A stretch of DNA of 64,000 bases from Candidatus Dojkabacteria bacterium. Its GTDB lineage: Bacteria > Patescibacteriota > Dojkabacteria > SC72 > JAHDCA01. The stretch is taken from assembly GCA_030583845.1 (NCBI GenBank), contig CP129478.1, positions 343,175 to 407,174 on the forward strand, in the 5' to 3' direction. The position numbers and the translations under genes are program-made. The notes beneath the pieces are model-generated. The model was not told the origin of the DNA. It ran no database searches and was given only the letters and a program-made list of their open reading frames with translations. Shown here piece after piece: positions 36,497 through 63,393 of this stretch. Positions within the stretch are counted from its first letter, which is position 1; every line of letters begins with the position of its first letter.

Positions 36497-36558
36497 AGTC
36501 CGACCACCCGACCACTTGCTCGACCCACTTGCGAAGCAAGTGGTCGGGTGGTCGGACT
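36497..36558. repeat. Family-2 complex palindrome (62 nt) between the polA stop and the ligase start
   Basis: agtccgaccacccgaccacttgctcgacccacttgcgaagcaagtggtcgggtggtcggact; 15-nt outer arms are perfectly complementary; the inner core is cccacttgc-gaa-gcaagtgg. Confidence 0.85.
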
Positions 36559-39309
36559 ACTCCTTTATCTCGGCCCAATTATCACCATACCCCCACCCCA
36601 CTTTCAACGGCAGGCTCATCTTCACGCAATTTTCCATAATCTCCTCAATCTTCTTGGCGACCTCTTCCACGACACCCTTCTCAATCTCCAGCACAAACTC
36701 GTCGTGGATCTGCAGTAGCAGGAATACTTTCTCACCCCACTCCTTATCGATCTCACGCTGGATTCCGACCATCGCCAACTTCATAATATCCGCTGCACTT
36801 CCCTGCATCGGCATATTGATTGCCTCGCGTACGGCAGCATTCATGATGCGGCTATTTGCCGAGTTTAGCCCACTCATATATCTGCGCCTGCCAAACATCG
36901 ACTCAACATAGCCTCGCGATTGCGCCTCCTGAACTGCACGATTCATATATTCAGCCACACCTGCATAGGTCTGATAGTAGGTCTTGATGTATAGATCTGC
37001 CTCTTCGGGAGAGATACCAAGCATTCGAGAGAGCCCAAACTTTGACTGACCATACAAGATACCGAAGTTTACAGTCTTGCCGACATTTCGCTGCTTTGAA
37101 GTCACCTCTTCTGCCGAGACCTTAAACAGCTTCGACGCCGTATTTCTATGAATATCAAGCCCTTCATCGAAGTACTTGATCAGTACTGGGTCATTTGATG
37201 CATCAGCGACAATTCGATACTCGATCTGTGAATAGTCAAATGAGGCTAGGCAAAATCCATCACCAGGGATAAAGAATTTCCTCACCTTCTCAGCGAGATC
37301 ACCTCTGGCTGGGATATTTTGCAGGTTGGGATTTAAGGATGAGAAGCGTCCTGAAGATGCCCCTGTCTGCACAAAGTCAGTATGGATTCGTCCATCCTCG
37401 GCGCTTTTCATTATCTCCTCAAACGGGTTTACATAGGTGCCGAGCACTTTTGCAGCTTCACGATATTGAAGAATTGACTCAATCGCTGGGTGCATCTCTT
37501 TCAATGTAAGCAGCACCTCTTCGCGTGTGCTCTTCGCCCTGCCACCACCTGGGAGGTGTAGCTCATCAAACAGCACCTCTCCCAATTGCTTAGGAGAATT
37601 GAGGTTAAACTCATGACCGACAGCTTCAAATACAGTTTTCTGCAGCAGATCGACCCTGCTCTTGCAGTTCAACCTTGAAGCTTGCTAACTCCTCTTTATC
37701 TACGCGTATCCCTCGCCTCTCCATTCGAGCCAGCGTGTATGACACTTCAGGCTCGAGCCCTTTAATGACCGCCTCAATCTCGGTATCGCAATTCTTATAA
37801 ACCTTCTTCACAGATCCGATGCGACTAGCCGCATACTCGCCTAGAGCATAGCTACCCATCTTTTCGTTGTAAGCTCCGAGCAAGCTTTTTTGAATAGTAG
37901 ACAAGTCGGACCGCATCCTGAAAATTATTGACCTCTTCATGCAAATTCTTGCCCACTTCATTAAAAATTAATGAAGTAAGGCTGTAGTCACGCAATCCAG
38001 ATGACATATGGAAGGCTGCCAATTTCAGGTCAATAAAGCTGCAGCTTACACTGTCGAAATCTACGTCAGCACCCTGAACTGCAAAAAGTGCCTCGCTGTT
38101 GTGAATTATAGTTTCACAGGGCGTCACGACCAATTTTCGCATGAGATCACTTAACAGGGTTTCACGACCCTCCCCCTCCAAGATTAACCCTGAAAGTTCT
38201 CCCGATTTATCCACAGTTGCTACCACCCACTTCCCAGACAGAGCAAGAAGGTACACTTGAGCAGCTTCATCCACCTTCTTTACCAATTCATCTTCATTAA
38301 CTTCATGAATTTCATTAAACTCGTCACTCAAAGATTCCGTGGCCTCACTACTTTCCTTAGACTCGCCGCTACTTTTAGTCTCACCAAATATACCTAGCTG
38401 ATCCCCACCTTCATCCGTTCGCGATGACTGAGGAATTTTATTGACCAGCGATCTAAACTCCAACCGCCCAAAGAGAGAGATTACCTCTTCACGATTAAAA
38501 TCGCGTAATGTAGAAGCCTCCAGAGTCAGATCCAGATCAACCGCCTGGTCAATTGTGGCTAACTCACGACTAAATTGCGCCTGCTCCACCCCCTCAGCCA
38601 GCAGCTTCTGCTGCCTTGGCTTAAGTTTATCGATATTTTCATAGATCCCCTCAAGCGACTTATACAACCCAAGCATCTCAAGAGCGCTCTTATCGCCAAT
38701 ACCCTTGATCCCTGGGATATTATCAGAAGCATCACCTACAATAGCCTTATAATCGATCACCTGCTCAGGGTAGTAGCCATACCTCTTATATGTAGTCTCG
38801 GCATCATAAAGAAGCAGATTTTTAAAGCTCCCCGCCGGCAGAGCAATACGAACCTTCGGCGTAATAAGCTGCAAAAGATCCCTATCACCCGACACAATTA
38901 CCAACTCCACGCCATAATCTTGCCACTTTCCACTATCCACCCACTTGGCGACTGTCCCCAATATATCATCCGCCTCAAACCCATCCTTTTTAATTATCGG
39001 AATATTAAATGCATTTAACACCTCTTCTACTACTGGAAACTGATCGGTTAGCGATTTATCAACAGGCTTCCTTTGAGCTTTATATTCAACATACTTTGTA
39101 TGACGGAATGTCGGCTTGGGGGTATCGAATGCGCAAAAAATATATTCAGGCTCAAACTGCTCAAGAACGCTCAGGAGCATTGCGGTAAATCCGTATACAG
39201 CATTCACCTGCAACCCGGTAGTAGTAGTCAGATTTGGAGGAAAGGCGTGAAAAGCCCTGTGGACTATTGCATTTGCATCGATTGCCAATACTGTTGGAGT
39301 TTTAGCCAT
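36557..39309 (-). CDS. polA: DNA polymerase I, interrupted by two 1-nt frameshifts (fragments 37852-39309, 37626-37961, 36557-37672); probably intact in vivo
   Basis: N-terminal 5'-3' exonuclease (MAKTPTVLAIDANAIVHRAFHAF), central region YTLARMERRGIRVD, polymerase motifs FNLNSPKQL and QIHDEFVLE. The shifts sit at an A6 run (caaaaaagc, RC of about 37881-37890) and a ggg run (caagagcagggtcg, near 37650). Confidence 0.85.
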
Positions 39310-39394
39310 AAGCGGTTTAACCTAATCATCCGCAGCCGCTAACCTATAACTCCGAACCGCAGCTTAGTAGCGTGGTAGCGGCACAACCATACAA

Positions 39395-41263
39395 TTAATT
39401 AAACAAGCTATTGAACTCGTCCCTATCAATCTCTTCCTTCTCTAGCAAAAGCTTAACCAATGTCTCTACGACTTCACGATTATCCTTAAGCACCTTGCGG
39501 GCATAGTTCAATGCCTCGTCAATAATTCCCTTTACCTCTTCATCAATCAATCGCGAAGTATGGTCACTATGATCCTTCAAGCCACCATACTGGTAGCCCA
39601 TCATTGCTGATTCTTCAGGGTCACCATACTGTACAAAACCGAGCTTATCACTCATACCGTATCGCTGAACCATTGCCCTTGCTACCTGAGTAGCCTGACT
39701 GATGTCACTTGATGCACCGGTTGTGATACTACCCAAGAACACCTCTTCTGCTGCACGGCCGGCAACACTCGACTTGATCATCGAGAGCATTCTATCTTTT
39801 GTGATCATCATTCGATCATCTTCAGGGACATACACTGTCACACCACCAGACGAGCCTCGCGACAGGATAGAGATCTTGTCGACAGGGTCGGTATGTGGAG
39901 TGAGCTTGGCAACAACTGCGTGCCCAGCCTCATGATATGCAACTCGCTTATGGTCTTCCTCGCTTCTGGTACTCTTTCGCTGTCGGCCGAGCCTCACCTT
40001 GAGGTATGCCTCAGTCAGATCACTATGAGAAATCTCTTTGCGATCATCTTTTGCGGCTGCGATAGCAGCCTCATTTAGTAGGTTCTCAAGATCAGCCCCT
40101 GAATAGCCGATCGTTTTCTTGGCGATCCTCTCGAGATCAGCATCTGCGGCAAATTTCTTATTCTTGGCGTGGACCTTCAAAATCTGGAGCCTTCCATCAT
40201 AATCAGGCATATGCACAGTCACACTCCTATCAAATCGACCAGGCCTCAAGATAGCTGGATCAAGCACATCTGGACGGTTAGTTGCGGCTAGCACAATTAC
40301 ATTCTCCCTACTCTCAAGTCCGTCCATCTCAACCAATATCTGGTTCAATGTTTGCTCGCTAGCCCCAGAATGTACTACAGTTCCCCGTTTCTTAGCCACG
40401 GCATCGATTTCGTCGATAAATATGATACATGGAGAAGCCTTCTTAGCTTTTGCGAAAAGGTCGCGGACTCTCGATGCACCAGCTCCAACAAGCATCTCTT
40501 CAAACTCAGAGCCTGAGGTATGGAAAAATGGCACACCTGCCTCACCTGCCACTGCCTTGGCGAGCAAAGTCTTACCAGTTCCCGGAGGACCTACAAGTAG
40601 AACACCCTTAGGTATCCTTGCCCCGATCGCGAGAAATTTCTTTGGATGCTTGAGGAATTCAACAATTTCAATCAGCTCTTCTTTGACCTCTTCAATTCCT
40701 GCTACATCATTAAATGTAATACCTGTTCGCTTGCCGAAGATCAAACGAGCCTTGCTCTGACCAAAATCCATAAATCTACCACCAGAGCTCTGCATCCCCT
40801 TAATCATTGAGTAGATCAAGAAGATTCCAACACCTAGCAGCACAAGGGTAATAATGTCAGCGATATTGATCGCTACATCAGGCTTAAAAGTCGCATCCTT
40901 CAGCTCGCTAGTCATCACACCTTCAGACTCCATTCGGTCGTAGAAGTTCTCATTTGGTGGAAGCACGGCATGGATCCTGGTTGCACCGACTCGCTCATCC
41001 TCTGCCTCACGCTCAAGGATCAATGTACTCTCCTGCCAGATAATCTTCTCGTAATTACCTTCTACGGTCTCTTTTACAATCTTATTGTATGAGACCTCTT
41101 CGCCGGTTGGCTCGTATGCATCAAGGAAGAACCATGTACCCAAGATTAGTAGCGCAATAACAACTGTTGAGACAATTGTATAATTTGAAGGCTTTCGCTT
41201 TGAAATCTTCCGTATATCCCCACTCCCCTTTTCTTTACTCTTTGAATCTGCCACTGCTATCAC
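39395..41263 (-). CDS. ftsH: ATP-dependent zinc metalloprotease FtsH
   Basis: N-terminal TMs, AAA Walker A GPPGTGKTLLAKAVA, SRH region, zinc-binding HEAGHAVV. Confidence 0.95.
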   Translation of the reverse strand: MIAVADSKSKEKGSGDIRKISKRKPSNYTIVSTVVIALLILGTWFFLDAYEPTGEEVSYNKIVKETVEGNYEKIIWQESTLILEREAEDERVGATRIHAVLPPNENFYDRMESEGVMTSELKDATFKPDVAINIADIITLVLLGVGIFLIYSMIKGMQSSGGRFMDFGQSKARLIFGKRTGITFNDVAGIEEVKEELIEIVEFLKHPKKFLAIGARIPKGVLLVGPPGTGKTLLAKAVAGEAGVPFFHTSGSEFEEMLVGAGASRVRDLFAKAKKASPCIIFIDEIDAVAKKRGTVVHSGASEQTLNQILVEMDGLESRENVIVLAATNRPDVLDPAILRPGRFDRSVTVHMPDYDGRLQILKVHAKNKKFAADADLERIAKKTIGYSGADLENLLNEAAIAAAKDDRKEISHSDLTEAYLKVRLGRQRKSTRSEEDHKRVAYHEAGHAVVAKLTPHTDPVDKISILSRGSSGGVTVYVPEDDRMMITKDRMLSMIKSSVAGRAAEEVFLGSITTGASSDISQATQVARAMVQRYGMSDKLGFVQYGDPEESAMMGYQYGGLKDHSDHTSRLIDEEVKGIIDEALNYARKVLKDNREVVETLVKLLLEKEEIDRDEFNSLFN

Positions 41264-41399
41264 TGTCTAAAAAATTTATACTGTGCATCTTTCTTACAAT
41301 CTCGTATGCCATACAATTATATACCAAAGCCGACTAAGTTGTATCGTACAGCGCCTTAAATTTACTCTGGATATTTAAACTGCATTGAGTTTAACAATA

Positions 41400-41476
41400 T
41401 GGTGGTGGCGACTGGAATCGAACCAGTGACCTTGGGTTTATGAATCCCATGCTCTTACCTACTGAGCTACGCCACC
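41400..41476 (-). tRNA. tRNA-Met (anticodon CAU), elongator type, CCA encoded
   Basis: Acceptor GGTGGCG/CGCCACC (G1-C72 paired, so not an initiator), anticodon loop TTCATAA, T-arm ACTGG-TTCGATT-CCAGT, A discriminator plus CCA. Confidence 0.75.
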
Positions 41477-41608
41477 CGTAGCCTTATTGTCAAAGGATCT
41501 TAACATTTTTAGCGCTATCTTGATAGTACTATGGCTTCCTTAAGCCACAATTAAGCAAAGATTACCCACCCAGCGCCTTGTACAATATATACCCCCATAG
41601 GTATATGC

Positions 41609-42178: not shown

Positions 42179-42336
42179 GATAATTTAATGAAGCCACCAT
42201 TACTTCCGCCACTTGGGTGAAAAATTGGAGGCAGCTGAATATACCACAAAGCTATTTGCCGGCCAACCTACCCACATGCCCAAAATGTTTGTGTAAAACG
42301 GGATATTTGTATATAATCCCAGTGCCCTCAAATCGA

Positions 42337-42408: not shown

Positions 42409-42604
42409 TATATTGAAAATATCCGAAGGATATTTTCAATATATTAAGGTGTTGACGAGAACCAGAGGCTCGTGAGGACGCATCCCACGAATGTAATGAG
42501 TGGCAGATGCGACGTCATGCTAGATTCATTGAGGTCTTCGAGCAAAGCGAGAAGTAACCGAAATGAGATCCAGTAAGTCCAGCCCCGCAACCAATTCCAC
42601 CAGA

Positions 42605-43250: not shown

Positions 43251-44138
43251 ATGGGATCAATAAAGAACCCTCAATTTAAAACCCACCACGACAGCTTCAT
43301 AAACGACCTCAAAGGAAAGGGTCGGTCGGACGCCACAGTTATCGCTTACTCAAAGGATATTGAGCAGCTTTTAAATTTCTTTTCTACAAGAGGTATTTCA
43401 TCGCTGAACAATACCAGCATCGAGGATCTCGAAGCCTTTAAAAGAGACCTAGAGGATAATAACTATACACCCAAGAGTGTTTCAAGAAAGATTAACAGCA
43501 CCCGCACATTCTACAAGTACCTCTTAGACAACGGACAGATCAGCGACAATCCATCTGAGAAGCTTGCTCACCCAAAATTTGAGGTAAAGCCACCACGAAT
43601 CCTTACAGAGATGGAGTATCGAGCACTCCGCGACGTAAGCCGAGTAGACCTCCGACTCTACTCTATTGTAGAGGTGCTTTTGCAGACCGGCATCCGCATC
43701 GGAGAGCTGGCAGCACTCACAATTCACGACGTCAAAGAATCAAACAGCGGCATCAAATATCTATATATCGCTCCACAGGGCAGCCACCCAGCACGCAAGG
43801 TCCCATTGAATAAGTCGGCAAACAAAGCAATCCAAGAATATCTGAAGGTACGACCTGAATCAGATGAAGATACGCTCTACATCACAAAGAATGGTCGCCC
43901 CCTACTCGTCCGCAACATTCGTACTACGATTGATAAGGCATTTGAGAAGGCTGGCATCAAGAACGCAAAGGTTAATGACCTTCGCAACACCTTTATTGCC
44001 CACCACCTATCAAATGGTGTAAGCTTGGTCACAGTTTCAAAGCTTGTTGGTCATAAGCGTCTCTCAACAACTGAGAAGTACCTGAATCTCATCAAGAAGA
44101 ATGGTGAGGAGCAGGAGAAGAGCCTTCAGGATCTTTAG
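43251..44138 (+). CDS. Tyrosine site-specific recombinase, XerC/XerD family
   Basis: N-terminal SAM-like domain; C-terminal catalytic residues R...HxxR...Y in LRNTFIAHHLSNGVSLVTVSKLVGHKRLSTTEKY. Confidence 0.8.
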   Translation: MGSIKNPQFKTHHDSFINDLKGKGRSDATVIAYSKDIEQLLNFFSTRGISSLNNTSIEDLEAFKRDLEDNNYTPKSVSRKINSTRTFYKYLLDNGQISDNPSEKLAHPKFEVKPPRILTEMEYRALRDVSRVDLRLYSIVEVLLQTGIRIGELAALTIHDVKESNSGIKYLYIAPQGSHPARKVPLNKSANKAIQEYLKVRPESDEDTLYITKNGRPLLVRNIRTTIDKAFEKAGIKNAKVNDLRNTFIAHHLSNGVSLVTVSKLVGHKRLSTTEKYLNLIKKNGEEQEKSLQDL

Positions 44139-44179
44139 ACTGTAAAGGGATCGTGAATTAAATTACGCGTTTTAATTCC

Positions 44180-44701
44180 TTGGCCATCCCTAATCCTGCA
44201 GCTAATCAACCTCACCAGGAAGACCCTACTGAAATAACCCCGTTACTCATGATTAGTCAGGAATTCGGACTCCAAAAGCTTGCCGAGGTTCCATTCAGAA
44301 GCGTACGTGCCTATATGAGCGTGGCAGGATTCACAGAAGAGGTTCGCTTTACTCCTGATGATTCACTTACTGCGATTGCATTAGATATTCTTTCAGTATA
44401 CTTTCTCCTATACGGACGAAACGGATCTTTTTCTCCGATGCCTATAGATTCAGCCTTAAACCAACATTATTCAATAGTCTCCAACCCGATTATTTCTGAG
44501 CCAGCAGATTTCATCAACACCCCTTATACTGACAAGATAGATAACCCACACCATAATGCGGAAGGGATCTCTCTACGCAGCGTCACAATCCCACTCAACC
44601 CTGCCCTCAGGCAAGGCACACGAATATACTTGGAGCCGAATATCGATCAAGAGGTCTTTACCATATATAAGATGGTCAGCAAAAACACTCCCGAGGGTTA
44701 A
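44180..44701 (+). CDS. Hypothetical protein (173 aa)
   Basis: ORF only; 41 nt downstream of the recombinase gene. Confidence 0.35.
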   Translation: MAIPNPAANQPHQEDPTEITPLLMISQEFGLQKLAEVPFRSVRAYMSVAGFTEEVRFTPDDSLTAIALDILSVYFLLYGRNGSFSPMPIDSALNQHYSIVSNPIISEPADFINTPYTDKIDNPHHNAEGISLRSVTIPLNPALRQGTRIYLEPNIDQEVFTIYKMVSKNTPEG

Positions 44702-44715
44702 TGATTAATGGGAAA

Positions 44716-44791
44716 TGGTAGGGGTGGGTGGAATTGAACCACCGGCCACTGCTTTATAAGAACAGCGCTCTAACCACTGAGCTACACCCCC
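44716..44791 (-). tRNA. tRNA-Ile (anticodon UAU), CCA encoded
   Basis: Acceptor GGGGGTG/CACCCCT (G1-U72), D-arm GCTC-AGTGGTTA-GAGC, anticodon stem CTGTT/AGCAG, loop CTTATAA (U33, anticodon TAT, A37), T-arm GGTGG-TTCAATT-CCACC, A plus CCA. A UAU-type AUA decoder is rare. Confidence 0.7.
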
Positions 44792-44870
44792 AGATCAGCC
44801 AGAATATCCATGACATGCTCGAATTGGCTGCCTGAAGTGATTTTACCAGACTTCCAGCGAATTTTACACC

Positions 44871-44922
44871 GCCCGGCCACCCGACAACTTGCGAAGCAAG
44901 TGGGTCGGGCAAGTGGCCGGGC
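44871..44922. repeat. Family-2 palindrome (52 nt), orientation inverted relative to 36497 and 60819
   Basis: gcccggccacccgacaacttgcgaagcaagtgggtcgggcaagtggccgggc; contains the cttgcgaagcaagtgg core. Confidence 0.85.
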
Positions 44923-45024
44923 TTTATACCGTCAATCAGCCTCTCCCCCTAAAGGCGGCGGTATACATTTCAAAATCATTTTGCTAAACTGGAAAAACTA
45001 ACAACATGTTGCAAAAACTAAGTC

Positions 45025-46788
45025 ATGAACCGTGGTTCTAGAACAGTACTAATTATTATCCTCGTGATAGCCGCCCTCTTAGGAATTGGGGCTATCGCTC
45101 TTCTCTGGTATAACTCAACAATTAACGACCAGGATGGAGACGATAACAATAATAATGTATCAGCCAACAAGTGTAACCAGATTTTCGTCCTTGATGCTTC
45201 CGAGAATGCTATTGATAATGATGCGACACTTGACCCTGCCCAACCTATCTTCATAGGTGCAGAATTTCAAGTTGATAAAGATGTGCTTCCTGATCAGCAG
45301 ACCGGAGCGGATGTCGAGCTACAGGATTTCGGATTTGCATTTACTGTTAACTCGGCTAATCAGCCAGAGGTTGTAACAACCGTCGACGTTGAGGAAAGCG
45401 GAGACTACTACATATTCAAACCACAATACTCCTACTCTGATTTTGGTGGAGACAGCACACTTTCTATAGTTGCTGATTTCGACGCAGAAGAGAATGTCGC
45501 ACTTGATAACTCGCTTGGAGCAAACTCAAGCTGTGCCGCAGTATATGAGGTAAAGATTGAAGGGAACCAGGGAAGTGGGTCATGCGTTGCAGTTGGAGAC
45601 ACAGGAACTATCAGCGAGGATCAGTGTTGTACCGGCCTCGAGCAGGTTGACAACTGTACAGAGCCAGATTCTAATAACCAGTGTACCCTCGAAGTCCCAG
45701 AGTGCTTCACCTGCGTAAATGCCTTGGGTGACAACGAATGTGGGACAGGTGAAAATGAATGTAACAGCCCTCAGGATTGTACAGGCGAGCCTGGCGAGCC
45801 AACTGAGGAGCCAGACGCCTGCATCTCTGCCGGCAATACAGGCGATGGTGGTGCAGGTGAAGTTTGCTGTAACAACCTTTTCGAAGTAAATTGCGAAACT
45901 CCTGACTCTAACAATAGCTGTAGCGAAGCGGATGCTAGCTGCTTCAGATGTATCAGCGGCGAGCCAGGAGATAATGTGTGCGGAAGCGGGGAAAATATCT
46001 GTAACAGCTTTGAGGATTGTGGAGATGGTATTCTTGAACCAACCGACCCAGGCGAGCCATCTGCAGGTGGCGGTGATGATGACGGAGATTTCGATCCGAC
46101 AGAGCCAACATCTGACAATTCAAACTTTACAGTCACAGTCACAACAGCCACACAGTGCGTAGAGAGAATTACACCAAATAACGATATCACTATCCTTATC
46201 ACAATCCGTAACGCAGGCTCGACCACCCATGATGTAGCCGAAGTCACAAATGCCCTGCCACTAGGATTTACATATATCAGTGGCAGCACGGTCATAAATG
46301 GAGCGGCAGATACAGGCGACCAATATCTCACACTTAACAACATCGGAGATAGTGAAGAGCTAGTCTGGACAGTAAGCAACGGCTGGAGCGTATCTGCAAA
46401 CGGCACATTGACCATCCAATTCCGAGCGATTGCAGACCAGAATGCCCTCACAGGCAGCAACCTAAACCAGGTAGTCGTCACACCGGAAAATATCCCTGTA
46501 AACAGCGACGCGTTGCGTGCATCGCTCTCTATAACCGTCGCACAGAACTGCTCTACGCCTCAGACAGCCATCTTTGGTGATTCATCAACCAAGATAATTG
46601 CCGGAATTGTAGCCCTTATCATAGCAATGGTATTCTACATCACATCTGCGGGCGAGATGGTCTCAATGAAGCTGGCTGGAAACAAGGTTATCCGAGACCA
46701 GGCTGAGAAAGTACGCATGGTTCACCTCAAGAAATCGAACCCACGAGAGTATTTCGAGGAGAAATTCCGAAAGAAGGATAAGAAATAG
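45025..46788 (+). CDS. Large surface protein with N-terminal signal/TM, two Cys-rich approx 80-aa repeats, a DUF11/CARDB-like beta domain and a C-terminal TM anchor
   Basis: Repeats CCTGLEQVDNCTEPDSNNQCTLEVPECFTCVNALGDNECGTGENECNSPQDC and CCNNLFEVNCETPDSNNSCSEADASCFRCISGEPGDNVCGSGENICNSFEDC; conserved-repeat-like NFTVTVTTATQC...TILITIRNAGSTTHD; C-terminal IIAGIVALIIAMVFYI. Confidence 0.6.
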   Translation: MNRGSRTVLIIILVIAALLGIGAIALLWYNSTINDQDGDDNNNNVSANKCNQIFVLDASENAIDNDATLDPAQPIFIGAEFQVDKDVLPDQQTGADVELQDFGFAFTVNSANQPEVVTTVDVEESGDYYIFKPQYSYSDFGGDSTLSIVADFDAEENVALDNSLGANSSCAAVYEVKIEGNQGSGSCVAVGDTGTISEDQCCTGLEQVDNCTEPDSNNQCTLEVPECFTCVNALGDNECGTGENECNSPQDCTGEPGEPTEEPDACISAGNTGDGGAGEVCCNNLFEVNCETPDSNNSCSEADASCFRCISGEPGDNVCGSGENICNSFEDCGDGILEPTDPGEPSAGGGDDDGDFDPTEPTSDNSNFTVTVTTATQCVERITPNNDITILITIRNAGSTTHDVAEVTNALPLGFTYISGSTVINGAADTGDQYLTLNNIGDSEELVWTVSNGWSVSANGTLTIQFRAIADQNALTGSNLNQVVVTPENIPVNSDALRASLSITVAQNCSTPQTAIFGDSSTKIIAGIVALIIAMVFYITSAGEMVSMKLAGNKVIRDQAEKVRMVHLKKSNPREYFEEKFRKKDKK

Positions 46789-51326: not shown

Positions 51327-52466
51327 ATGATAAAAGAATTAAAACTCACCAACTTCAGAAAATTCGAAAAACTTTCATTAATTTTTAATGAAAGGGTCAC
51401 GATAATCTACTCCGACAACGCGGTTGGCAAGAGCACAATTTTAGAAGCTATCCACATCATTACCAATCAGTTCTCCCCCTTCTCCTCCGACAACAACGAA
51501 ATCTACAATATCTGGCAGGAGGAGCCAGACTCCCACTTCAGGATCGAGGTTCGCAATAAGCTTGACGATGATGAGGAGCAGCTTGCCCATTTCCAGGATA
51601 GAAAGAGCCGTCAGTACTTCAGAAATCGTGCAAAGACCACACGCAAAAAGCTCACTGAGAATGTCGCATCTGTAATCTTCAGCCCCGAGCAGATTGAGAT
51701 CCTCATGCTCTCACCAGACCGACGCCGTGATTTCATCGACGAGGTAATAGCCAGGCTTGACCCAGACTACCAGGACAATCTTAAAATCCTTCGCCGCACA
51801 CTTAAGCAGCGCAATTCTCAATTAAAGAAGCTCTCAAAGATCTTTTACGAAAGTGGCATCGTGCGAGAAAATGACCAACAGCTCGCCTACTGGACCAAGC
51901 AGTTCGCACATATCTCATCTCAAGTGATGCAGAAGCGAGCAGAAACAATCGACCTTCTATGCAACGACCTGCAAAAGCTAATCTATCTACCATCAGTAAG
52001 CATAAATATATTGAGCGACATGGTTAAGTATACTGAGCTTGTGGAATTGCACCTAGAGCAGCTTCAGACCAGCACAAAAAGAGATATAGCAGTGGGACAC
52101 TCCACGGTTGGCGCACATCGCGATGATTGGAAAATCATGGCCATCAGCAATGAGAAAAATGGTGTTGATCATAGCCAGGCCAAAGATGTGCGGAAATTCG
52201 GCTCACGTGGAGAGAAACGGATGGCTGTAGGCCGTCTGATACTGACTAGTCACACTCTACTCCAGGAGAAGCTTGGCTTTGCCCCCACTCTACTTCTCGA
52301 CGATATCTCATCCGAGCTAGACCAGGGCAATACTGTAAAGATATTGCAGGATGCCATATCGCGAGGTGCGCAGCTGATAATTACAACAATCCATCTTGAG
52401 GAGATACCTGAGGAGATCCGTGATCAAGCCGAGGTGCTCAATCTATCCGAGCTGCTCCGAGATTAA
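51327..52466 (+). CDS. recF: DNA replication and repair protein RecF
   Basis: N-terminal MIKELKLTNFRKFEKLSLIFNERVTIIYSDNAVGKSTILEAI (SMC-like Walker A); C-terminal LLLDDISSELD Walker B and D-loop. Confidence 0.85.
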   Translation: MIKELKLTNFRKFEKLSLIFNERVTIIYSDNAVGKSTILEAIHIITNQFSPFSSDNNEIYNIWQEEPDSHFRIEVRNKLDDDEEQLAHFQDRKSRQYFRNRAKTTRKKLTENVASVIFSPEQIEILMLSPDRRRDFIDEVIARLDPDYQDNLKILRRTLKQRNSQLKKLSKIFYESGIVRENDQQLAYWTKQFAHISSQVMQKRAETIDLLCNDLQKLIYLPSVSINILSDMVKYTELVELHLEQLQTSTKRDIAVGHSTVGAHRDDWKIMAISNEKNGVDHSQAKDVRKFGSRGEKRMAVGRLILTSHTLLQEKLGFAPTLLLDDISSELDQGNTVKILQDAISRGAQLIITTIHLEEIPEEIRDQAEVLNLSELLRD

Positions 52467-52502
52467 GAGCTCAGACCCGATCGGGTCTGAGCTCTTAATC
52501 TC
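52467..52502. terminator. 36-nt perfect palindrome between convergent recF and the 600-aa secreted protein gene (bidirectional terminator candidate)
   Basis: ttaagagctcagacccgatcgggtctgagctcttaa, perfectly self-complementary and centred on GATC. Confidence 0.55.
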
Positions 52503-52521
52503 GGAGGAATCTTGCGCTTAC

Positions 52522-54324
52522 CTACAAAGCATTCACAAAATCGATACCGTTTACTCTCCCATCGGAGTTCGTATCAGCAGGGCCACCATCGTCGCCATAT
52601 GCATCAATCACCTGCTGTGGCGTAACGTTCCCACCACCCTGGCATTGAGTACATGTCCCTCCACAACCATCACCCTCGCTACAGCTCCGTGTGACACAAT
52701 CAGGAATACATGCTCGCACATTTGTTGAGGGCTGAAGATGTTGGCACTCTACCCTATCCGGTGTACATCCAGACCAGATTGCATAGTTTCCAACTGAGTT
52801 TGCACCATTAAGATTATCAACCATCACGAAGCCAGCAGCGTAGTAATCGGTTAAAATAGTACTCAGGAAAGGATGGTAGTTCTCGGTCCCCAAGAAACCA
52901 GAAAGGTGGGTGTTTAGCGAAGGATTTCCCCCTTTCGCGCCATTTGCGAAAGTTTGCCAAGCGACCTGGTTGTTGTAGTGCCTTGGGTAATGAGAAGGTG
53001 GCTCGATATGCAGACCTGATGCTTGCACTACACTATTGAGAATTGAGAAATCGACCTCGGGCATATGCAGATTATTATCATAGTAGTAGGTTGCTATTGT
53101 CTCCGCGTTGCTATCTTTCGCCCGAATCTCATTGGCGATCTCATTCATGAAGCGAGCCATATTGTACTTCTTGAAAAGCTCGTAGTTAGCATTTTGTGGA
53201 AACGGCACCTGTGAAACAGGTGACTCGTTGCGTGTTGCACGCCACGCATTATATTTTGCCAACTCAACCGTGGAATAATCGACCTGGTAATCGTTCTGAT
53301 CCCCGATCTCGTAGTCTCGATCGCCAGCGTAACCAGTTGTAAACACCATATTCTCACGGATATGGGAGTAGCTTGGCTCCTGCCAGAGCAGATATCCACG
53401 CACATTCACATGATCCTTGTATCGCTCTGCTCCTTCACCGACAACCTTCTTAGTGAAATTAAGAAAAGCATCAGATGAATAGCTTGGGACAGGTGTGTGT
53501 ACACCAAGATCTGTATCTAGACCATTGAACACCATATCAGCTGACTCGTACACCTGAATCGGTGCGCCAAGATGCTCCATCTCCACACCATTTGTTGTGA
53601 GTGGTAGGTGTCTCCCATTTGGATGGGCGTGGCTATCCTGGTAGATCATGATATGCTCGATCCAGTTATAGTTGGATCCATTTACGTTGCTGGATGGATG
53701 TCGCATAGCATCAGTCGCGGGATCAGACATGCAGTAGCCTTGTGCAATTTTCTGTGCGATTGTCATACCTGGCCCCCAATCTGGCCTGCACCAATACCAC
53801 CCCATCAGCGAGTAGTACGAGTATGGGTATGGCGCCTGACCTCCATAAGCTGAGGTATTAATTAAGAAAAAAACTTCGATCCCATTTATCCTTGCTAGAT
53901 CCACCAGGTCATCATAGTAATCATAGTCAGGATTGTTAAAATCAACGAAATCGTTGATCTTGTTGGTGCCGCCAGGATGGTTGGATGGCAAACTATTATC
54001 TTGGCTCCATCTTGGTGGATATACATCCTTTGTATCCAAGAGAATCTGAAGCACATGTGGTTTGTGGTATGCGAGCATGGCATTGAATTCACCCTGTAGC
54101 TGAGCATAGTCTGTCGCGTGATCATACTTCATGAATTTATAGCCGCCCATCTGTGTCTCGGGTTTGAAGACCCACGGGGACGAAAGCGGAGCCCACCACA
54201 GATTCCACGTTTTATACCCCCCTTGAGCCTTCACTGGTGCTGACGAGGGTACATATCCAATGAGTACCAGCATCATTACGAGCATCACAAAGAAGTATTT
54301 TGAGTATTTCAGGAGCCTTTTCAT
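52522..54324 (-). CDS. Secreted protein, possible glycoside-hydrolase-like fold, with a Cys-rich segment and a single C-terminal dockerin-like repeat
   Basis: Signal peptide MKRLLKYSKYFFVMLVMMLVLIGYVPSSAPVKA; Cys cluster CIPDCVTRSCSEGDGCGGTCTQC; C-terminal DTNSDGRVNGIDFVNAL (calcium-binding dockerin-type loop). The enzymatic assignment is weak. Confidence 0.45.
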   Translation of the reverse strand: MKRLLKYSKYFFVMLVMMLVLIGYVPSSAPVKAQGGYKTWNLWWAPLSSPWVFKPETQMGGYKFMKYDHATDYAQLQGEFNAMLAYHKPHVLQILLDTKDVYPPRWSQDNSLPSNHPGGTNKINDFVDFNNPDYDYYDDLVDLARINGIEVFFLINTSAYGGQAPYPYSYYSLMGWYWCRPDWGPGMTIAQKIAQGYCMSDPATDAMRHPSSNVNGSNYNWIEHIMIYQDSHAHPNGRHLPLTTNGVEMEHLGAPIQVYESADMVFNGLDTDLGVHTPVPSYSSDAFLNFTKKVVGEGAERYKDHVNVRGYLLWQEPSYSHIRENMVFTTGYAGDRDYEIGDQNDYQVDYSTVELAKYNAWRATRNESPVSQVPFPQNANYELFKKYNMARFMNEIANEIRAKDSNAETIATYYYDNNLHMPEVDFSILNSVVQASGLHIEPPSHYPRHYNNQVAWQTFANGAKGGNPSLNTHLSGFLGTENYHPFLSTILTDYYAAGFVMVDNLNGANSVGNYAIWSGCTPDRVECQHLQPSTNVRACIPDCVTRSCSEGDGCGGTCTQCQGGGNVTPQQVIDAYGDDGGPADTNSDGRVNGIDFVNAL

Positions 54325-57899: not shown

Positions 57900-57955
57900 G
57901 GATTTTGTTGTATATAAAGGGTATAATCCGCGGCAATGTAAGATTTACCAAGCAT

Positions 57956-58456: not shown

Positions 58457-58521
58457 CACTGCATAGACAGGGATATACACAGGTGGTAGATTTAAATGAT
58501 AACCTATAACCAACAAGATCT

Positions 58522-59220
58522 ATGAATCCGAATCAAACAGCAGGAACCACCGAACCTACAAACAGCACTACTCAGCAGCCAACAGTTGTAGCTGAACAAC
58601 AGCCACAACTTACATTGGACCAGCAGATAGACCTCGCCCTCACTGGATTTGAGAGTTACCCTGAGTCTAAGAGAGCTATGACTATCTTGTATGAATCAGT
58701 CATGCATGATGGATCTGACATTGCGAAAAGGGCATTGCTGTTATCCATCGATATGATCTCCCAGCAGGCACCACTGAATGAGTTCCAATTGCCGGGTGCG
58801 TTTGCAAAGGCACGTAGAGCGGAGCTGCCTCTGATCTGGACTGAGTATTTACCACGAATAACTGCTGCTCTTCAAGATTACCAACCGAATGTATACTCTG
58901 GGATCAATATCTCTGAGGCTCTATTCGTAGTTGCAGGTATGCTTATAAAGAGAAGAGAGAGTCGCAACAGAGGTGAAGAGTTCTTTAGAGAGGCAGCGGT
59001 AGCAGCTATTGCATCTACTATTCCACTTGATTTTAAAGAGAAAGGAGTTACAAGTTTCATCGGCGAGAAGGGAGTATATCTTGAAGCAAAAACCGTTCAC
59101 GACCTTATTAAGGCAGATCAAAAGGGTGGGTATCAAGATATGCCAACAGACGATCCACGTGTAAGAGACGTGATTCTCGAAGCCACAAGGTTGTATGACA
59201 CAATCGCAGGCACGTTATAA
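58522..59220 (+). CDS. Hypothetical protein (232 aa) with a disordered T/Q/P-rich N-terminus
   Basis: ORF only. Confidence 0.4.
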   Translation: MNPNQTAGTTEPTNSTTQQPTVVAEQQPQLTLDQQIDLALTGFESYPESKRAMTILYESVMHDGSDIAKRALLLSIDMISQQAPLNEFQLPGAFAKARRAELPLIWTEYLPRITAALQDYQPNVYSGINISEALFVVAGMLIKRRESRNRGEEFFREAAVAAIASTIPLDFKEKGVTSFIGEKGVYLEAKTVHDLIKADQKGGYQDMPTDDPRVRDVILEATRLYDTIAGTL

Positions 59221-59295
59221 ATCTTGCATGATATCTTATTCCAGAATTTACTGAGAGATATACTACCTCGCTAGAGGCTTACACTCCTCAAAATT

Positions 59296-60165
59296 CTAGT
59301 TTGATAATTGCATATTCGTCGCTGCCTGACTATTCTTCCATCCAGAATAAACATTCATCATCAACGCCGCTATCGTCATCGGTCCAACACCACCCGGCAC
59401 AGGAGTAATATACGATACAAGATCCTCTACAGCTTTAAAATCCACATCGCCGGCCAATTTCCCATCCGCCCCCATTGAGATTCCCACATCCACTACTACA
59501 GCCTCTTCTTTAATGAATTTTTCATTAACCAAACCAGCCTGTCCTGTAGCAGAGATTAAAATATCTGCTGTTCGACATATCTCTTCCAGCCCAACTGTCT
59601 TAATATGGCACACTGTCACGGTTGCATCGCGAGCCATCATCATTAAAGAGAGCGGGATCCCTACTACCTGAGATTTTCCGATTATCACTACACTCTTCCC
59701 TTCAACTTCAATACCATATTCATCAAGCAGCAGCATAATTCCAGCAGGAGTTGCTGGGGCGAACACTTCACTACTGCCGACAGCCAGCCCACCAAGACTT
59801 GCTGCAGTTAAGCCATCCACATCTTTTTTCACATTAATTTCATTAATTAGCTCCGCACTATCCCAGCCACCTGGCAATGGAAGCTGGATCATGCATCCAT
59901 CGACGCTGTCACTGCTGTTAACCGTCTCAAGATCGACCAGTACCTCGCCCTTGCTGGCGTCGGTGGCGTACTCGTGAAGTGTCATTGTGTAGCCCAAGCG
60001 CTCGGCGACCTTCTTCTTCATCTCGACATATTTGCGGCTGCCGAAATCATCACCAATCAAGAATATATCCAAGCGGGGCATGCGCATATTCTCGTGACGA
60101 GACAGTTTCAGCTCGATATCGGCCAATATCTTCTCTGAAGTTTTCTTGCCATCCAGAAGCACCAA
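59296..60165 (-). CDS. folD: Bifunctional methylenetetrahydrofolate dehydrogenase/cyclohydrolase FolD
   Basis: Rossmann GxSxxVG (IIGKSQVVGIPLSLMM) and the conserved PGGVGPMT motif. Confidence 0.9.
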   Translation of the reverse strand: MVLLDGKKTSEKILADIELKLSRHENMRMPRLDIFLIGDDFGSRKYVEMKKKVAERLGYTMTLHEYATDASKGEVLVDLETVNSSDSVDGCMIQLPLPGGWDSAELINEINVKKDVDGLTAASLGGLAVGSSEVFAPATPAGIMLLLDEYGIEVEGKSVVIIGKSQVVGIPLSLMMMARDATVTVCHIKTVGLEEICRTADILISATGQAGLVNEKFIKEEAVVVDVGISMGADGKLAGDVDFKAVEDLVSYITPVPGGVGPMTIAALMMNVYSGWKNSQAATNMQLSN

Positions 60166-60183
60166 TTTACAACCCTGCTTAAA

Positions 60184-60768
60184 TTATTTTTTGCGCCACA
60201 CCGATACCTTATCATTCCTCTTCGTGCCTACCTCATATACCTCTACGGAGTTTTCCGCTTCAAATTTCTTGCCAAATCCAAATGCCACCGATACGACTAT
60301 TGCACCCGAAGGCAATTCATTCACCAGACGTTCCATCATGTCCGCTACAAAGCCTGTGGTCATGTAGAGATACACTTTATTGTATTGTGAAAAGTCGGCC
60401 TCACGTACATCTTTTTTCATGAATTTAATGTTGCGCAGACGGTTAATTTTGGAGGAGCAGTTGCTCCAGAATATCAACGCCCTATTAATATCCATGCCGG
60501 TAAATTGTGCCTCGGGAAACTGCTTGGCTGCAGTTATCAAGAAACGACCACTCCCCGACCCTATATCTATAACTCTATCGCCAGGCTTTATCTCCAACAG
60601 TTGGACAGCTTTCTTGAGCAGTTTCTTCTCAACGGGTACAAATGGTACTGGATCTCTAAAAGAAAAGGCTACTATCAAGGTTCTACCGATCATAAATAGC
60701 GCCAATCCGTAAAAAGGGATCATGATAAGCAGTGCAATAAGCTCTTTCGACATGGGTGTGAGAGTCAA
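60184..60768 (-). CDS. Class I SAM-dependent methyltransferase with N-terminal TM helix
   Basis: Motif I VIDIGSGSGRF; N-terminal LIALLIMIPFYGLALFMIG. Confidence 0.65.
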   Translation of the reverse strand: MTLTPMSKELIALLIMIPFYGLALFMIGRTLIVAFSFRDPVPFVPVEKKLLKKAVQLLEIKPGDRVIDIGSGSGRFLITAAKQFPEAQFTGMDINRALIFWSNCSSKINRLRNIKFMKKDVREADFSQYNKVYLYMTTGFVADMMERLVNELPSGAIVVSVAFGFGKKFEAENSVEVYEVGTKRNDKVSVWRKK

Positions 60769-60818
60769 CTAATATATGATATGGCTATTATACGGTTTGA
60801 CAGCCCTTTTGTGGAGAT

Positions 60819-60881
60819 CACCCGACCACCCGACCCACTTGCCCGACCCACTTGCGAAGCAAGTGGTCGGGTGGTCGGGTG
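60819..60881. repeat. Family-2 complex palindrome (63 nt), near-identical to the 36497 copy
   Basis: cacccgaccacccgacccacttgcccgacccacttgcgaagcaagtggtcgggtggtcgggtg. Confidence 0.85.
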
Positions 60882-60884
60882 CCC

Positions 60885-62717
60885 TTAAGAAGCTTCTACC
60901 TCCTTGAAAAATGCCCCTTTCTTCTTCATCAACTCCTTGTACGAGCCAGACTCCACAATCTTGCCGTGCCGCAAATAGTAAATCCGGTCAAACTCCTCCA
61001 GATTATCGACATTTCGAGTGATGTAAAGCAGGATTCGATCATCGCTGTTTACCAATTTGAAAATATTGTCCAAAATATTCTTCCGCGACACACTATCAAC
61101 GTAGGTGAACGGCTCATCCATTAACATAATGTTGCGGTCACGGTAGACCATTCGGGCGATTGCGATTCGCTGCCAATAGCCTGCCGGGATCTCACGACCA
61201 CCGCTGAAATATTTTCCAAGCAGCTGATCATCTTTCAAGCCTTCCGATTTCATGAATTTGCTCACCCCTGCGACCTCCTTAGCAAATTCATACCTACTAC
61301 GATTTACCTTGACAGACTCACCAGTCAGCATGATATTTCGTTCTATCGTGAAGTTGTATCTGACAAAATCCTGGAATACCACAGCTACCTGATTCTTAAG
61401 CTCACCCCTTTCTAACTCGCGCACCGAATAATCACCCAAAAAATACTCACCAGTCTGGAGCGCATAAAGACCAGACAAGATTTTGACTAGTGAGCTTTTG
61501 CCTGAGCCATCACCACCGACGATTGCTACCTTCTCCCCTGGATTTACCACCATACTTATGTTTTCCAGAGACTTCTCTTTATCACCAGGATAGGTGAAGT
61601 CGACCTTATACAGCTTCAGGGTTGGCGTGTCGCGCTTGCTTAATTTCATATTCCCGGATTCTAGGTCGCTAAAACCCTCATATTCAAGCAGTGCAAAAAA
61701 CTCGTCTGTATAGGATATATCGTCGAGCAGTCTGAATAGATTCCTAATTACCGAGAAGCTACCATTATATGCGCTCTCCGCATAGTCATAAAGTGCTTTA
61801 AAATCACCGATTGTGAGTCTCTTCGTAATCGACACAAACAGTGTATAGATGATAAACACGACAAAAAGAAGTCGACCAATCATCGCGAAAAACGAATTAT
61901 CGATATAGAAGTGCTTCTGAAGCTCGGTCAGCTCCTTGTTGAATGAGAAATTCCCATCCCAATACTTCTGCTTAATATATTTGTACACGTTGTTAACACG
62001 TAATTCGGGGAAATTTGGTATCTCAAGCGCTATATACCTGAGATAGTTAACGAACTTAATCCCACCGATTTGCCTCTTTCGAAATTTCCTAATCTTATTC
62101 TCTCCGAAATACATCACTACTGGCTCAGCGATACTAATCAACACCAAGGTCACGCTCGGCCACCCTATCACCTCATACAGAATCACCATCGAGCTTACCG
62201 TTCTAATAAGCTGCTGCACGACAGTAGTAAACGTGTCATATGATGTGATGAGTCGTTCAATAGAGTAATTGGGCACAAATGCAAGCAGCTCCTGGAAATC
62301 AACCCTCTCAACCTCCTGCATATTCTCTGTCGACACCTTATCTAGCACCTCTTTCTCCCCTTCTAGCAATACTTCCCTGCTAATCCTGTCGAGGAGCCAC
62401 ACCCTGAGGTTGTTAAGCCCCTTCACTACAATCCAAATAGCGAGCCCGATCATCAGGAAATAAAACGAATCTGTAAAAAAATATTGTGTGATATCGAAAC
62501 TCTCCCAGCTATGCAGAACATCCGCCGTAGCATCAATAAACTGGCCACCAACGCGGATAAGGTAAAGCTCAAGGATTGTGATTATCAAAAAAGCAGTATC
62601 TCTAGTCAATGCAGAAGCCGGAGCCTTCTTGTAGACATAGGAAACTGTTTTGAAAATTGTGTGAAATGTCCTACGGATCTTCCCAGTCTTGGACAGCTTC
62701 TTTTCCATTCCCATCAT
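60885..62717 (-). CDS. ABC transporter, fused permease/ATPase (exporter type)
   Basis: N-terminal six-helix TMD; Walker A GGDGSGKSSLVKIL; degenerate signature FSGGREIP; Walker B IMLMDEPFT. Confidence 0.8.
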   Translation of the reverse strand: MMGMEKKLSKTGKIRRTFHTIFKTVSYVYKKAPASALTRDTAFLIITILELYLIRVGGQFIDATADVLHSWESFDITQYFFTDSFYFLMIGLAIWIVVKGLNNLRVWLLDRISREVLLEGEKEVLDKVSTENMQEVERVDFQELLAFVPNYSIERLITSYDTFTTVVQQLIRTVSSMVILYEVIGWPSVTLVLISIAEPVVMYFGENKIRKFRKRQIGGIKFVNYLRYIALEIPNFPELRVNNVYKYIKQKYWDGNFSFNKELTELQKHFYIDNSFFAMIGRLLFVVFIIYTLFVSITKRLTIGDFKALYDYAESAYNGSFSVIRNLFRLLDDISYTDEFFALLEYEGFSDLESGNMKLSKRDTPTLKLYKVDFTYPGDKEKSLENISMVVNPGEKVAIVGGDGSGKSSLVKILSGLYALQTGEYFLGDYSVRELERGELKNQVAVVFQDFVRYNFTIERNIMLTGESVKVNRSRYEFAKEVAGVSKFMKSEGLKDDQLLGKYFSGGREIPAGYWQRIAIARMVYRDRNIMLMDEPFTYVDSVSRKNILDNIFKLVNSDDRILLYITRNVDNLEEFDRIYYLRHGKIVESGSYKELMKKKGAFFKEVEAS

Positions 62718-62763
62718 AATAGTATATGGGTATGAAAAGAGCTACCCACACCATCAGAGAAAG

Positions 62764-62795
62764 ATGTGGCCCACTTGCAAGCAAGTGGGCCACAT
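62764..62795. repeat. Family-2 short variant hairpin (15-bp stem, 2-nt loop)
   Basis: atgtggcccacttgc-aa-gcaagtgggccacat, between the ABC transporter start and the hsp20 stop. Confidence 0.8.
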
Positions 62796-62833
62796 ACATT
62801 TACAAACTACCGAGGGATATAATCCAGTAACGA

Positions 62834-63253
62834 CTACCCTACCTTTACTTCAATGCTTTTCGGCTTAACCTCTTCTCGCTTCGGGAGAGTTACTTGGAGA
62901 ATCCCATCTTTAAAGGTTGCCTCTGCCTTATCAGCGTTAACAGCAACAGGAAGATCAGATGCACGTGAGAAAGACAATGAGCGTATCTCCTTGCGGTAAA
63001 ACTTTTTATCTTTATTGTCCTCCTCATTTTCCTCCTGCACTGATCCAGAAACAGTTATCATATTAGACTCAATCTGTATCTTAAGATCATCCTTGCTGAA
63101 GCCTGGCGCTTTAACCTTGACGACGACATTATCTTTATCTTCATAAATGTCCATCTGGACATCATCATAAGATTGGAAATCTACATCCCAATCCCAGAAG
63201 TCTCGTGGTACACCTTTCCACGGGTTCCATACTGCAATTCTTGACATAGTCAA
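62834..63253 (-). CDS. Hsp20/alpha-crystallin family small heat-shock protein
   Basis: Alpha-crystallin domain with the C-terminal GILQVTLPK and IEVK motifs. Confidence 0.85.
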   Translation of the reverse strand: MTMSRIAVWNPWKGVPRDFWDWDVDFQSYDDVQMDIYEDKDNVVVKVKAPGFSKDDLKIQIESNMITVSGSVQEENEEDNKDKKFYRKEIRSLSFSRASDLPVAVNADKAEATFKDGILQVTLPKREEVKPKSIEVKVG

Positions 63254-63287
63254 TTTTGTTAAAAATTAAATATGTAAATTGTAATGG

Positions 63288-63393
63288 GACCCGACCACTT
63301 AGCATTAGTAGAGCTCAAAAATGCTCGAAATAAGCCATAAATCCAAATAATTGACTTATCACTTAATCTATCAGTACTAAGTGGTCGGGTCCA
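63288..63393. repeat. Family-2-related 16-bp perfect inverted repeat pair separated by 74 nt, upstream of hsp20
   Basis: ggacccgaccacttag (63288-63303) pairs with ctaagtggtcgggtcc (63378-63393). Confidence 0.8.

Follow-up and report, generated by a model that had tools for sequence, protein, structure and literature searches.

A family of composite intergenic palindromes with three members in one stretch of a Candidatus Dojkabacteria genome

Are the palindromes scattered over one stretch of a Candidatus Dojkabacteria genome copies of a single dispersed element, and what could such an element be doing there? The question was raised by a 64,000-nt stretch of contig CP129478.1 (hereafter the window) from the 1,036,382-bp metagenome-assembled genome (MAG) of this Candidate Phyla Radiation (CPR) bacterium, in which a sequence-only reading had listed five copies of a palindrome resembling the repetitive extragenic palindromes (REPs) of other bacteria, and had taken them for a second family, unrelated to the CCGCTAACTTATAG palindromes of the same small genome. 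The size of the genome and the distinctness of the two families were both confirmed. Three of the five sites, named here A, B and C, form a family in the window, whereas the remaining two, close to hsp20, are an intrinsic terminator and a conserved leader stem (Table 1). The ABC transporter and the FtsH protein of the window correspond to WKZ31483.1 and WKZ31462.1 in NCBI and are identical to them across the shared length. Short-read Logan contigs from SRR24881069, DRR859400 and DRR779145/6, with 99.3-100% identity to the window, extended it by 8.7 kb rightward (L031) and by 6.8 kb leftward (L045), so that ~79.5 kb of the host organism was covered (window, L031 and L045). For comparison, four syntenic Dojkabacteria genomes were used, represented by five loci (L043, L044, L049/L050 and L051).

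The reality of the family was assessed by motif counts in the window and in its shuffled versions. The core CCACTTGCNNNGCAAGTGG was matched three times with at most two mismatches, compared to 0.02 matches expected; the 14-nt arm GGTCGGGTGGTCGG and the sequence CCCACTTGC were matched five and six times, for expectations of 0.15 and 0.30, respectively. A and C exhibited 98% identity across 44 nt, and B was 86-89% complementary-identical to both of them. A covariance model built from A, B and C scored the three copies at 75-88 bits and, over 179.5 kb (window, extensions and four relatives), retrieved nothing else except a weak match at 62764-62795; the ~100 kb from the four related genomes (L043, L044, L049-L051) contained no further copy for this model. 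The copies are all singletons, spaced by 8-16 kb. Copy B was spanned by one independent short-read Logan contig with 100% identity, and independent Logan contigs likewise recovered both halves of copy C; those for the left half came from three samples, of which two contain strains ~0.7% diverged. The independent confirmation covers B and C, and an assembly artefact was rejected for these two copies. The Logan contigs covering C end at the centre of the palindrome, as is to be expected when de Bruijn assemblers meet a long perfect palindrome, and this ending is not the sign of an artefact. A, B and C are a true repeat family, far beyond chance, and the palindromes of all three are present where the sequence-only reading had placed them.

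Every copy combines three 12-13-nt half-sites CCGAC(C)CACTTGC, two direct and one inverted, with a 3-nt loop between them and outer CCGACCAC 8-mers on the flanks; A(+), C(+) and B(-) align collinearly. The nested double hairpin with a duplicated CGACCCACTTGC unit, as first described, is real. The right arm has two pairing options, either with the outer left arm, the second unit being looped out, or with the inner unit, in which case a C bulges out. The left arm of B carries a deletion of 8-9 nt and has one CCGACCAC 8-mer fewer than those of A and C. The stems of the three copies are perfect over 20-26 bp, and folding of the copies as RNA gave -38.8 to -55.6 kcal/mol (z-scores -5 to -11). The three outermost pairs differ between A and C on both sides with complementarity kept, and 98% of the cells are paired. 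The inverted orientation ascribed to B holds for its arms but not for its 3-nt loop: in the aligned orientation the loop of B is TTC, compared to GAA in A and C, and the plus strand reads GCGAAGC in all three copies, irrespective of element orientation. A flip of the loop inside the palindrome of B is the simplest reading; with only three copies, the common strand of GCGAAGC is not significant. This heptamer is known as an extraordinarily stable DNA mini-hairpin (PMC13037366), which the apex of A, B and C matches exactly on the plus strand; the mini-hairpin is, however, a structural motif and not a genetic element, and explains neither the arms nor the dispersal of the family.

All three copies are intergenic within the window, and two of them lie directly at the stop codon of the co-oriented gene upstream. 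Copy A shares 2 nt with the polA stop codon (36557-36559, minus strand) and lies 23 nt upstream of the ligase ATG (36473). Copy C follows the ABC-transporter stop codon (60885-60887, minus strand) at a distance of 3 nt and precedes, by 4 nt, the -35 hexamer of the promoter-like site for methyltransferase-folD. Copy B is found in the middle of the spacer between the divergent tRNA-Ile(UAU) gene and the open reading frame (ORF) 45025-46788, 80 nt from the 5' end of the tRNA gene, 102 nt upstream of the ORF and ~170 nt downstream of a co-oriented 173-aa ORF. The description of all copies as lying exactly at gene boundaries holds for A and C, B being mid-spacer. On the transcribed strand, A, B and C are not followed by a U-tract, and the consensus terminator scan called none of them: the combination of a GC-rich stem, a 3-8-nt loop and a U-rich tail within 2 nt was absent from all three. 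A terminator role, which had been proposed for every copy, is consequently supported by sequence for the hsp20 hairpin at 62764-62795 only, B moreover not being at a 3' gene end.

The corresponding spacers of the relatives were then compared, two relatives covering the site of A, two that of C and one that of B. At site C, L043 retains TCCACA-17-TATAAT, with the same hexamers and 17-nt spacing, and L044 only the GTATAAT -10 box, both with a short, unstructured spacer devoid of the element; the z-score of spacer folding against shuffles was +0.8 in L043 and -1.0 in L044, compared to -5.9 in the window. At site A, the polA-ligase junction of L051 is 18 nt long and without the element, and that of L049 is a 193-nt spacer with an unrelated 8-mer tandem array (GATGGTTA)n instead. 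At site B, the tRNA-Ile(UAU) gene of L051 adjoins the orthologue of ORF 45025 (586 aa; 38% identity, E 7e-116) in the opposite orientation, across a 78-nt spacer with neither structure nor element. As the orthologous spacers lack the element in every relative that covers them, A, B and C were gained in the lineage of the window, in agreement with the turnover of palindromic elements suggested by the sequence-only reading. The search for PolA homologues returned no close relative and the closest FtsH relatives lie on 3-kb contigs, so that the comparison at sites A and B was restricted to relatives of 64-68% identity.

Several observations were made around these sites. The polA and ATP-dependent DNA ligase genes flanking A (34606-39309, minus strand) are each distributed over three reading frames (two frameshifts per gene), all of which retain homology. 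In L049 and L051 each gene is one uninterrupted ORF, and the NCBI annotation includes a 371-aa polymerase fragment. The split genes are either recent pseudogenes or local assembly errors. The array in the polA-ligase spacer of L049 (16119-16310) consists of ~17 tandem copies of the 8-mer GGTGATTA / GATGGTTA. The region beside the XerC-like recombinase gene (43251-45024; L051 1842-3745; L049 1-1781) differs among genomes, the tRNA-Ile(UAU) gene having opposite orientations in the window and in L051 and missing from the corresponding place in L049, and copy B is located at this rearrangement point. A dif/Xer site at B was considered and rejected on account of the 3-nt spacer and the three copies. 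In L051, a single arm CCGACCCACTTAC (20671-20683) agrees with the family half-site at 12 of 13 positions, for ~0.1 expected by chance, and sits ~720 nt upstream of the 16S gene of this distant relative.

The two remaining sites of the original five belong to hsp20. The hairpin at 62764-62795 was the only site to pass the hairpin plus T-tail terminator criteria (62795-62764, minus strand). It has only the 9-bp apex stem CCCACTTGC/GCAAGTGGG in common with the family and scored 16.6 bits with the covariance model (E 0.23); it is related to the family core and is not a full copy of the element. At the same position, L043 and L044 also have a hairpin with a T-tail, with unrelated stems, that of L043 (CCGCCAACCTATAAGTCGA) being a variant of the other palindrome family of the window. 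The conservation of the terminator position with a hairpin that differs per genome suggests that hairpin families colonise transcript-end positions. The stem-loop at 63287-63392 has only 11-12 nt in common with the family arms, at the base of its stem (CCCGACCACTT), and is present at the corresponding position in L043 and L044, the stem base reading GGACCCGACCACTT / AAGTGGTCGGGTCC in the window and GGACCCGATCACTTGG / CAAGTGGTGGGGTC in L044. It is a conserved hsp20 leader stem and not a dispersed copy. The 11-mer CCCGACCACTT was matched seven times with at most one mismatch (0.57 expected), and in the window only within this leader stem and A, B and C. Since the leader stem is found also in the more distant relative L044, it predates the family, whose arms may plausibly derive from it.

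The hsp20 leader, in which this stem-loop lies, is defined by a promoter-like site that overlaps an element similar to CIRCE (controlling inverted repeat of chaperone expression) with four mismatches to the consensus TTAGCACTC-N9-GAGTGCTAA. The promoter-like site, the CIRCE-like element and a small hairpin between the promoter region and the stem all exist in L043 and L044, which carry the full TTAGCA-N15-TGCTAA. HrcA is encoded 8 kb away (L031), the hrcA-grpE-dnaK and groES-groEL genes being located just past the right end of the window. The small hairpin following the CIRCE-like element displays covarying G-U/A-U pairs and is kept in three Dojkabacteria genomes. Two functions were envisaged for the leader stem. 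It was rejected as CIRCE, its TTAGCA and TACTAA half-site-like parts being more than 50 nt apart and the CIRCE-like element lying ~55 nt further upstream; a role as an RNA thermometer masking the Shine-Dalgarno sequence was unsupported, no Shine-Dalgarno sequence being evident before the hsp20 ATG in the three genomes.

We consider it moderately probable that A, B and C are low-copy, lineage-specific, REP-like dispersed composite palindromes, possibly a miniature non-autonomous element, and the family is probably tolerated as a transcript-end or processing hairpin. The copies would be transcribed as the 3' end or an intercistronic part of the upstream mRNA, where they would fold into their very long perfect stems and may act as barriers to 3'-exonucleases, be processed by a double-strand-specific RNase or form weak roadblocks, being tolerated and not required at their positions. 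Spread would most likely have occurred by a hairpin-recognising single-strand DNA mechanism acting in trans, of the RAYT (REP-associated tyrosine transposase) or IS200/IS605 type, and repair templated by the hairpin would preserve the symmetry of the arms and could have inverted the B loop; neither process was observed. The sequence of the family was probably seeded from the resident hsp20 hairpins, as the leader stem with CCCGACCACTT predates it.

Several results weigh against this reading. No transposase and no Y1_Tnp/RAYT domain was detected in the 40 large window ORFs scanned. Neither a target-site duplication nor a common flank motif was found around A, B and C, and their flanks carry no conserved GTAG or CGTC tag, GTAG standing next to A only, partly within the stem, with neither tag adjacent to B or C. 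Searches of GTDB representatives, JGI metagenomes, IMG/VR, plasmid and phage collections gave no related sequence, hence no autonomous parent, and the evidence for mobility is presence or absence between distant relatives only; as these relatives are 64-82% identical at the protein level, an insertion is inseparable from a replacement of the spacer. The position of B in a divergent promoter region means that a 3'-end role cannot hold for every copy. Finally, the number seen is low, with three copies in the ~79.5 kb of host sequence, a density that would extrapolate, as an extrapolation only, to a few tens per genome.

In the GTDB scan, the 19-nt core gave 30 matches, none with the family arms and eleven of them single chance hairpins; such chance matches are expected, since the palindrome has only ~11 free positions. 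The scan of JGI metagenomes with CCGACNACTTGCNNNGCAAGTGG gave 10 matches, all by chance, and Rfam 15 gave only sub-threshold matches to generic hairpins (miRNA precursors) that did not reach the gathering score. Two sets of sequences encountered in the course of these searches can be mentioned. The 19-nt core hairpin CCACTTGCGAAGCAAGTGG is found identically in the rRNA-operon (23S-matching) region of several Pasteurellaceae. Two WOR-3 MAGs contain dispersed ~200-nt repeats with the 21-nt apex CCCACTTGCGAAGCAAGTGGG as in the window, which are otherwise unrelated to it; their hairpins have three different outer stems, one type ending in GCCAC-TCTTTCTC, much like the hsp20 terminator of the window. 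The likeness of the apex could be a convergence on GCGAAGC or something shared.

Among known systems, published REPs occur mostly downstream of coding regions, many are thought to be RNA elements, and they comprise GTAG- and CGTC-tagged super-families of 20-40 nt (PMC3733652). A, B and C resemble them as short extragenic palindromes, mostly downstream of coding regions between co-directional genes, as a species-specific family of plausibly transcribed RNA hairpins, and by the possibility of several families per genome. They differ by their length (52-63 nt), by their composite structure of three half-sites and 8-mer repeats, by the lack of an unpaired GTAG/CGTC tag, by being singletons without dimers or clusters of the bacterial interspersed mosaic element (BIME) type, by the three copies seen with no RAYT among the ORFs scanned, and by their CPR host. 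The likeness to REPs drawn by the sequence-only reading thus holds only loosely: it stands for the extragenic position, mostly downstream of ORFs, and fails for the tag and the dimers or clusters. For CPR bacteria, no description of REPs turned up in a full-text literature search. Measured by the definition of miniature inverted-repeat transposable elements, which combines terminal inverted repeats, a target-site duplication and kinship to an autonomous insertion sequence, A, B and C do not qualify, neither a common duplication or flank motif nor a related sequence in the collections searched having been found.

Rickettsia palindromic elements (RPE) are 100-150 bp long and often inserted in frame within genes. 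The present family resembles them as dispersed hairpin repeats in a ~1-Mb host-dependent genome, without recognisable transposase and with presence or absence that differs between relatives; in contrast to RPE, it is strictly intergenic in the window, although the other family of the host does sit within 16S rRNA. Intrinsic terminators have in common with the copies a GC-rich stem-loop directly after a stop codon, a definition that the 62764 hairpin fits fully, whereas A, B and C have no U-tract and stems far longer than typical, and B is not at a 3' end. In Neisseria, inverted pairs of the short DNA uptake sequence (DUS) form hairpins at gene ends, with about one motif per kb. The likeness to DUS and to Correia elements (Neisseria miniature insertion sequences, NEMIS) lies in a motif arranged as inverted hairpin pairs in a competent organism, ComEC and ComEA being encoded here. 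However, the motif of the family is never single or intragenic and occurs about once per 9 kb, and A, B and C have neither the terminal inverted repeats of the Correia type nor a TA duplication. An uptake signal similar to DUS or to uptake signal sequences (USS) is unlikely, no single or intragenic copies of the motif being present.

Three further explanations and the possibility of an artefact were weighed against this background. Dedicated terminators or insulators could have been selected at each site, their similarity being kept by gene conversion between terminator hairpins and not by transposition. The position of A and C at 0-3 nt after stop codons, that of C directly upstream of a promoter conserved in L043, the asymmetric orientation relative to the upstream co-oriented gene, which is equal in all three copies, the terminator-like nature of the related hsp20 hairpin and the extreme stability of the stems are in line with such a role. 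Nevertheless, we regard it as unlikely, as no U-tract follows any of the copies, the relatives do without any hairpin at the equivalent junctions, A interrupts a junction that is 18 nt in L051, and Rho is encoded in the window (16032-17282), hairpins thus not being the sole means of termination; gene conversion, for its part, needs prior similar hairpins, against which the empty sites argue. The lack of U-tracts sets A, B and C apart from canonical intrinsic terminators and, together with the perfect 20-26-bp stems and the position of A within what is a tight junction in one relative, favours a tolerated hairpin over a dedicated terminator.

The copies might also serve as arrays to which a sequence-specific protein binds, for instance a regulator, nucleoid protein or recombinase, with the 12-13-bp half-sites and the motif of the hsp20 leader as recognition units. 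The regular arrangement of three half-sites is kept in all copies, CCCGACCACTT recurs in the hsp20 leader, beside a conserved XRE-type helix-turn-helix gene, and B is ~730 bp from the XerC-like recombinase gene. The proposal is quite improbable, however, because the sites are missing in relatives that retain the genes, the half-sites of the hsp20 leader are ~80 nt apart and joined only in the folded single strand, the 3-nt spacer is unlike that of dif-type sites, and no regulon logic joins the polA/ligase, tRNA-Ile and ABC/methyltransferase genes. More doubtful still is a single-stranded DNA signal, of the priming/initiation or uptake type, that would use the d(GCGAAGC) mini-hairpin at the apex. 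GCGAAGC and CCGAAGG mini-hairpins do occur at the single-strand initiation (ssi) origins of phage G4 and RSF1010 (PMC13037366). The heptamer is on the plus strand in all three copies regardless of orientation and ComEC and ComEA are encoded in the window, but three out of three on one strand corresponds to p = 0.25 and every occurrence of the motif lies within the palindromes, none being single or intragenic as for DUS or USS. Moreover, the GC skew is negative across the window, and by the usual rule a negative skew makes the plus strand the leading-strand template, in which case GCTTCGC would be the form exposed on the lagging-strand template. Finally, artefactual assembly or chance similarity has a negligible probability: short-read contigs do break exactly at the palindromes and the frameshifts in polA and ligase beside A could be assembly errors, but the intact span of B and the recovered halves of C speak against the former and the shuffle statistics exclude the latter.

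The other palindrome family (CCGCTAACTTATAGTG) brings a wider context. In the window it forms the tip of the 16S rRNA helix h10/V2 (32933-32983), this hairpin being 27 nt longer than in the Rfam model; the 16S gene is part of a minus-strand operon 16S-tRNA-Ile-tRNA-Ala-23S-5S, and the window has nine tRNA genes, including tRNA-Ile(UAU). In L049/L050, h10 is short and the same motif is the h6/V1 hairpin of 16S, and a diverged version of it is found in h6 of the L051 16S (~21455-21510). L049 also has a single arm of this family upstream of 16S and an arm pair between tRNA-Ile and tRNA-Ala in the rRNA spacer. Together with the terminator variant of L043, these occurrences place the same hairpin at non-orthologous positions, including within rRNA. 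It is conceivable, although rather unlikely, that Dojkabacteria palindromes are copies of structured-RNA hairpins placed elsewhere by hairpin-specific or RNA-templated copying. This idea draws on the stem sequence that the A/B/C family has in common with the hsp20 leader and terminator hairpins, and on the CCGCTAACTTATAG family being the h10 tip of 16S here and the h6 tip in a relative, with its motif also in terminators and rRNA-spacer stems at non-orthologous places. If true, a mobile 'hairpin cassette' system would remodel the variable helices of rRNA and the transcript ends in CPR genomes, with a double-strand-specific RNase or an unknown nuclease as its possible partner.

Two other features of the window were recorded. 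A perfect 52-bp palindrome (52455-52506, 26 + 26 nt, no spacer) lies between the convergent genes 51327-52466(+) and 52522-54324(-), and two Logan contigs end at its centre. In the ComEC and ComEA region (6530-9757), ComEC is present as two overlapping ORFs (Competence and Lactamase_B), which may be a further frameshift.

Table 1 Coordinates and organisation of the palindromes, hsp20 features and comparison loci. Positions are those of the window unless a locus is named.
Feature	Location	Strand	Description
Copy A	36497..36558	+	62-nt composite palindrome, perfect 24-nt arms 36497-36520 and 36535-36558
Copy A half-sites	u1 36508-36519, u2 36520-36532, inverted u3 36536-36548		GAA loop 36533-36535
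Copy B	44871..44922	-	52 nt; loop TTC on minus strand, GAA on plus strand
Copy C	60819..60881	+	63 nt; GAA loop, inverted unit
Copy C tandem CCGACCCACTTGC units	60830-60842, 60843-60855
Element order	left end		one or two outer 8-mers (CACCCGAC / CCGACCAC)
Element order	second		first half-site CCGAC(C)ACTTGC
Element order	third		invariant second half-site [CT]CGACCCACTTGC
Element order	fourth		3-nt loop
Element order	fifth		inverted half-site GCAAGT[GT]GTCGG
Element order	right end		8-mers complementary to the left ones
Promoter-like site, methyltransferase-folD	60787..60815	-	TCCACA-17-TATAAT; abuts copy C
hsp20 intrinsic terminator	62764..62795	-	14-bp stem, CUUG loop on transcribed strand, CTTTCTCT tail
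hsp20 5'-leader stem-loop	63287..63392	-	26-nt arms (inverted repeat), 54-nt spacer
hsp20 promoter-like site	63435..63471	-	TTGACG-18-TATATT; defines the leader containing the stem-loop
CIRCE-like element	63445-63471		TAGCA-N15-TGCTAA; overlaps hsp20 promoter-like site
Promoter/CIRCE-like/small-hairpin region	63394-63471; L043 9275-9360; L044 1829-1910	- (window)
Other-family loci	L049 18855-18893, 18227, 20651-20717; L043 9924-9974		L043 locus: hsp20 terminator variant
L043			marker ABC transporter, 82% protein identity to window
L044			marker ABC transporter, 64% protein identity to window
L049 / L050			marker FtsH, 68% protein identity to window
L051			marker FtsH, 64% protein identity to window
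Pasteurellaceae loci with CCACTTGCGAAGCAAGTGG	L001, L004, L005, L008, L010, L013, L017, L028		Avibacterium, Gallibacterium, Haemophilus
WOR-3 loci	L002, L003, L006, L007, L011, L012, L014, L018, L020, L022, L023

Genomes of CPR bacteria are ~1 Mb in size, and few mobile or repetitive elements have been recognised in them. A REP-like family acquired since the split from the sequenced relatives would demonstrate that new palindromic repeats can still emerge under such streamlining, and would give a handle on operon punctuation, for instance by stable 3' hairpins that lack U-tracts in a Rho-encoding organism. On the practical side, such palindromes break short-read assemblies precisely where they lie. 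On the present evidence the family is small and ordinary-looking, and its main value is as a pointer to a wider exchange of hairpins in these bacteria, 16S rRNA included.

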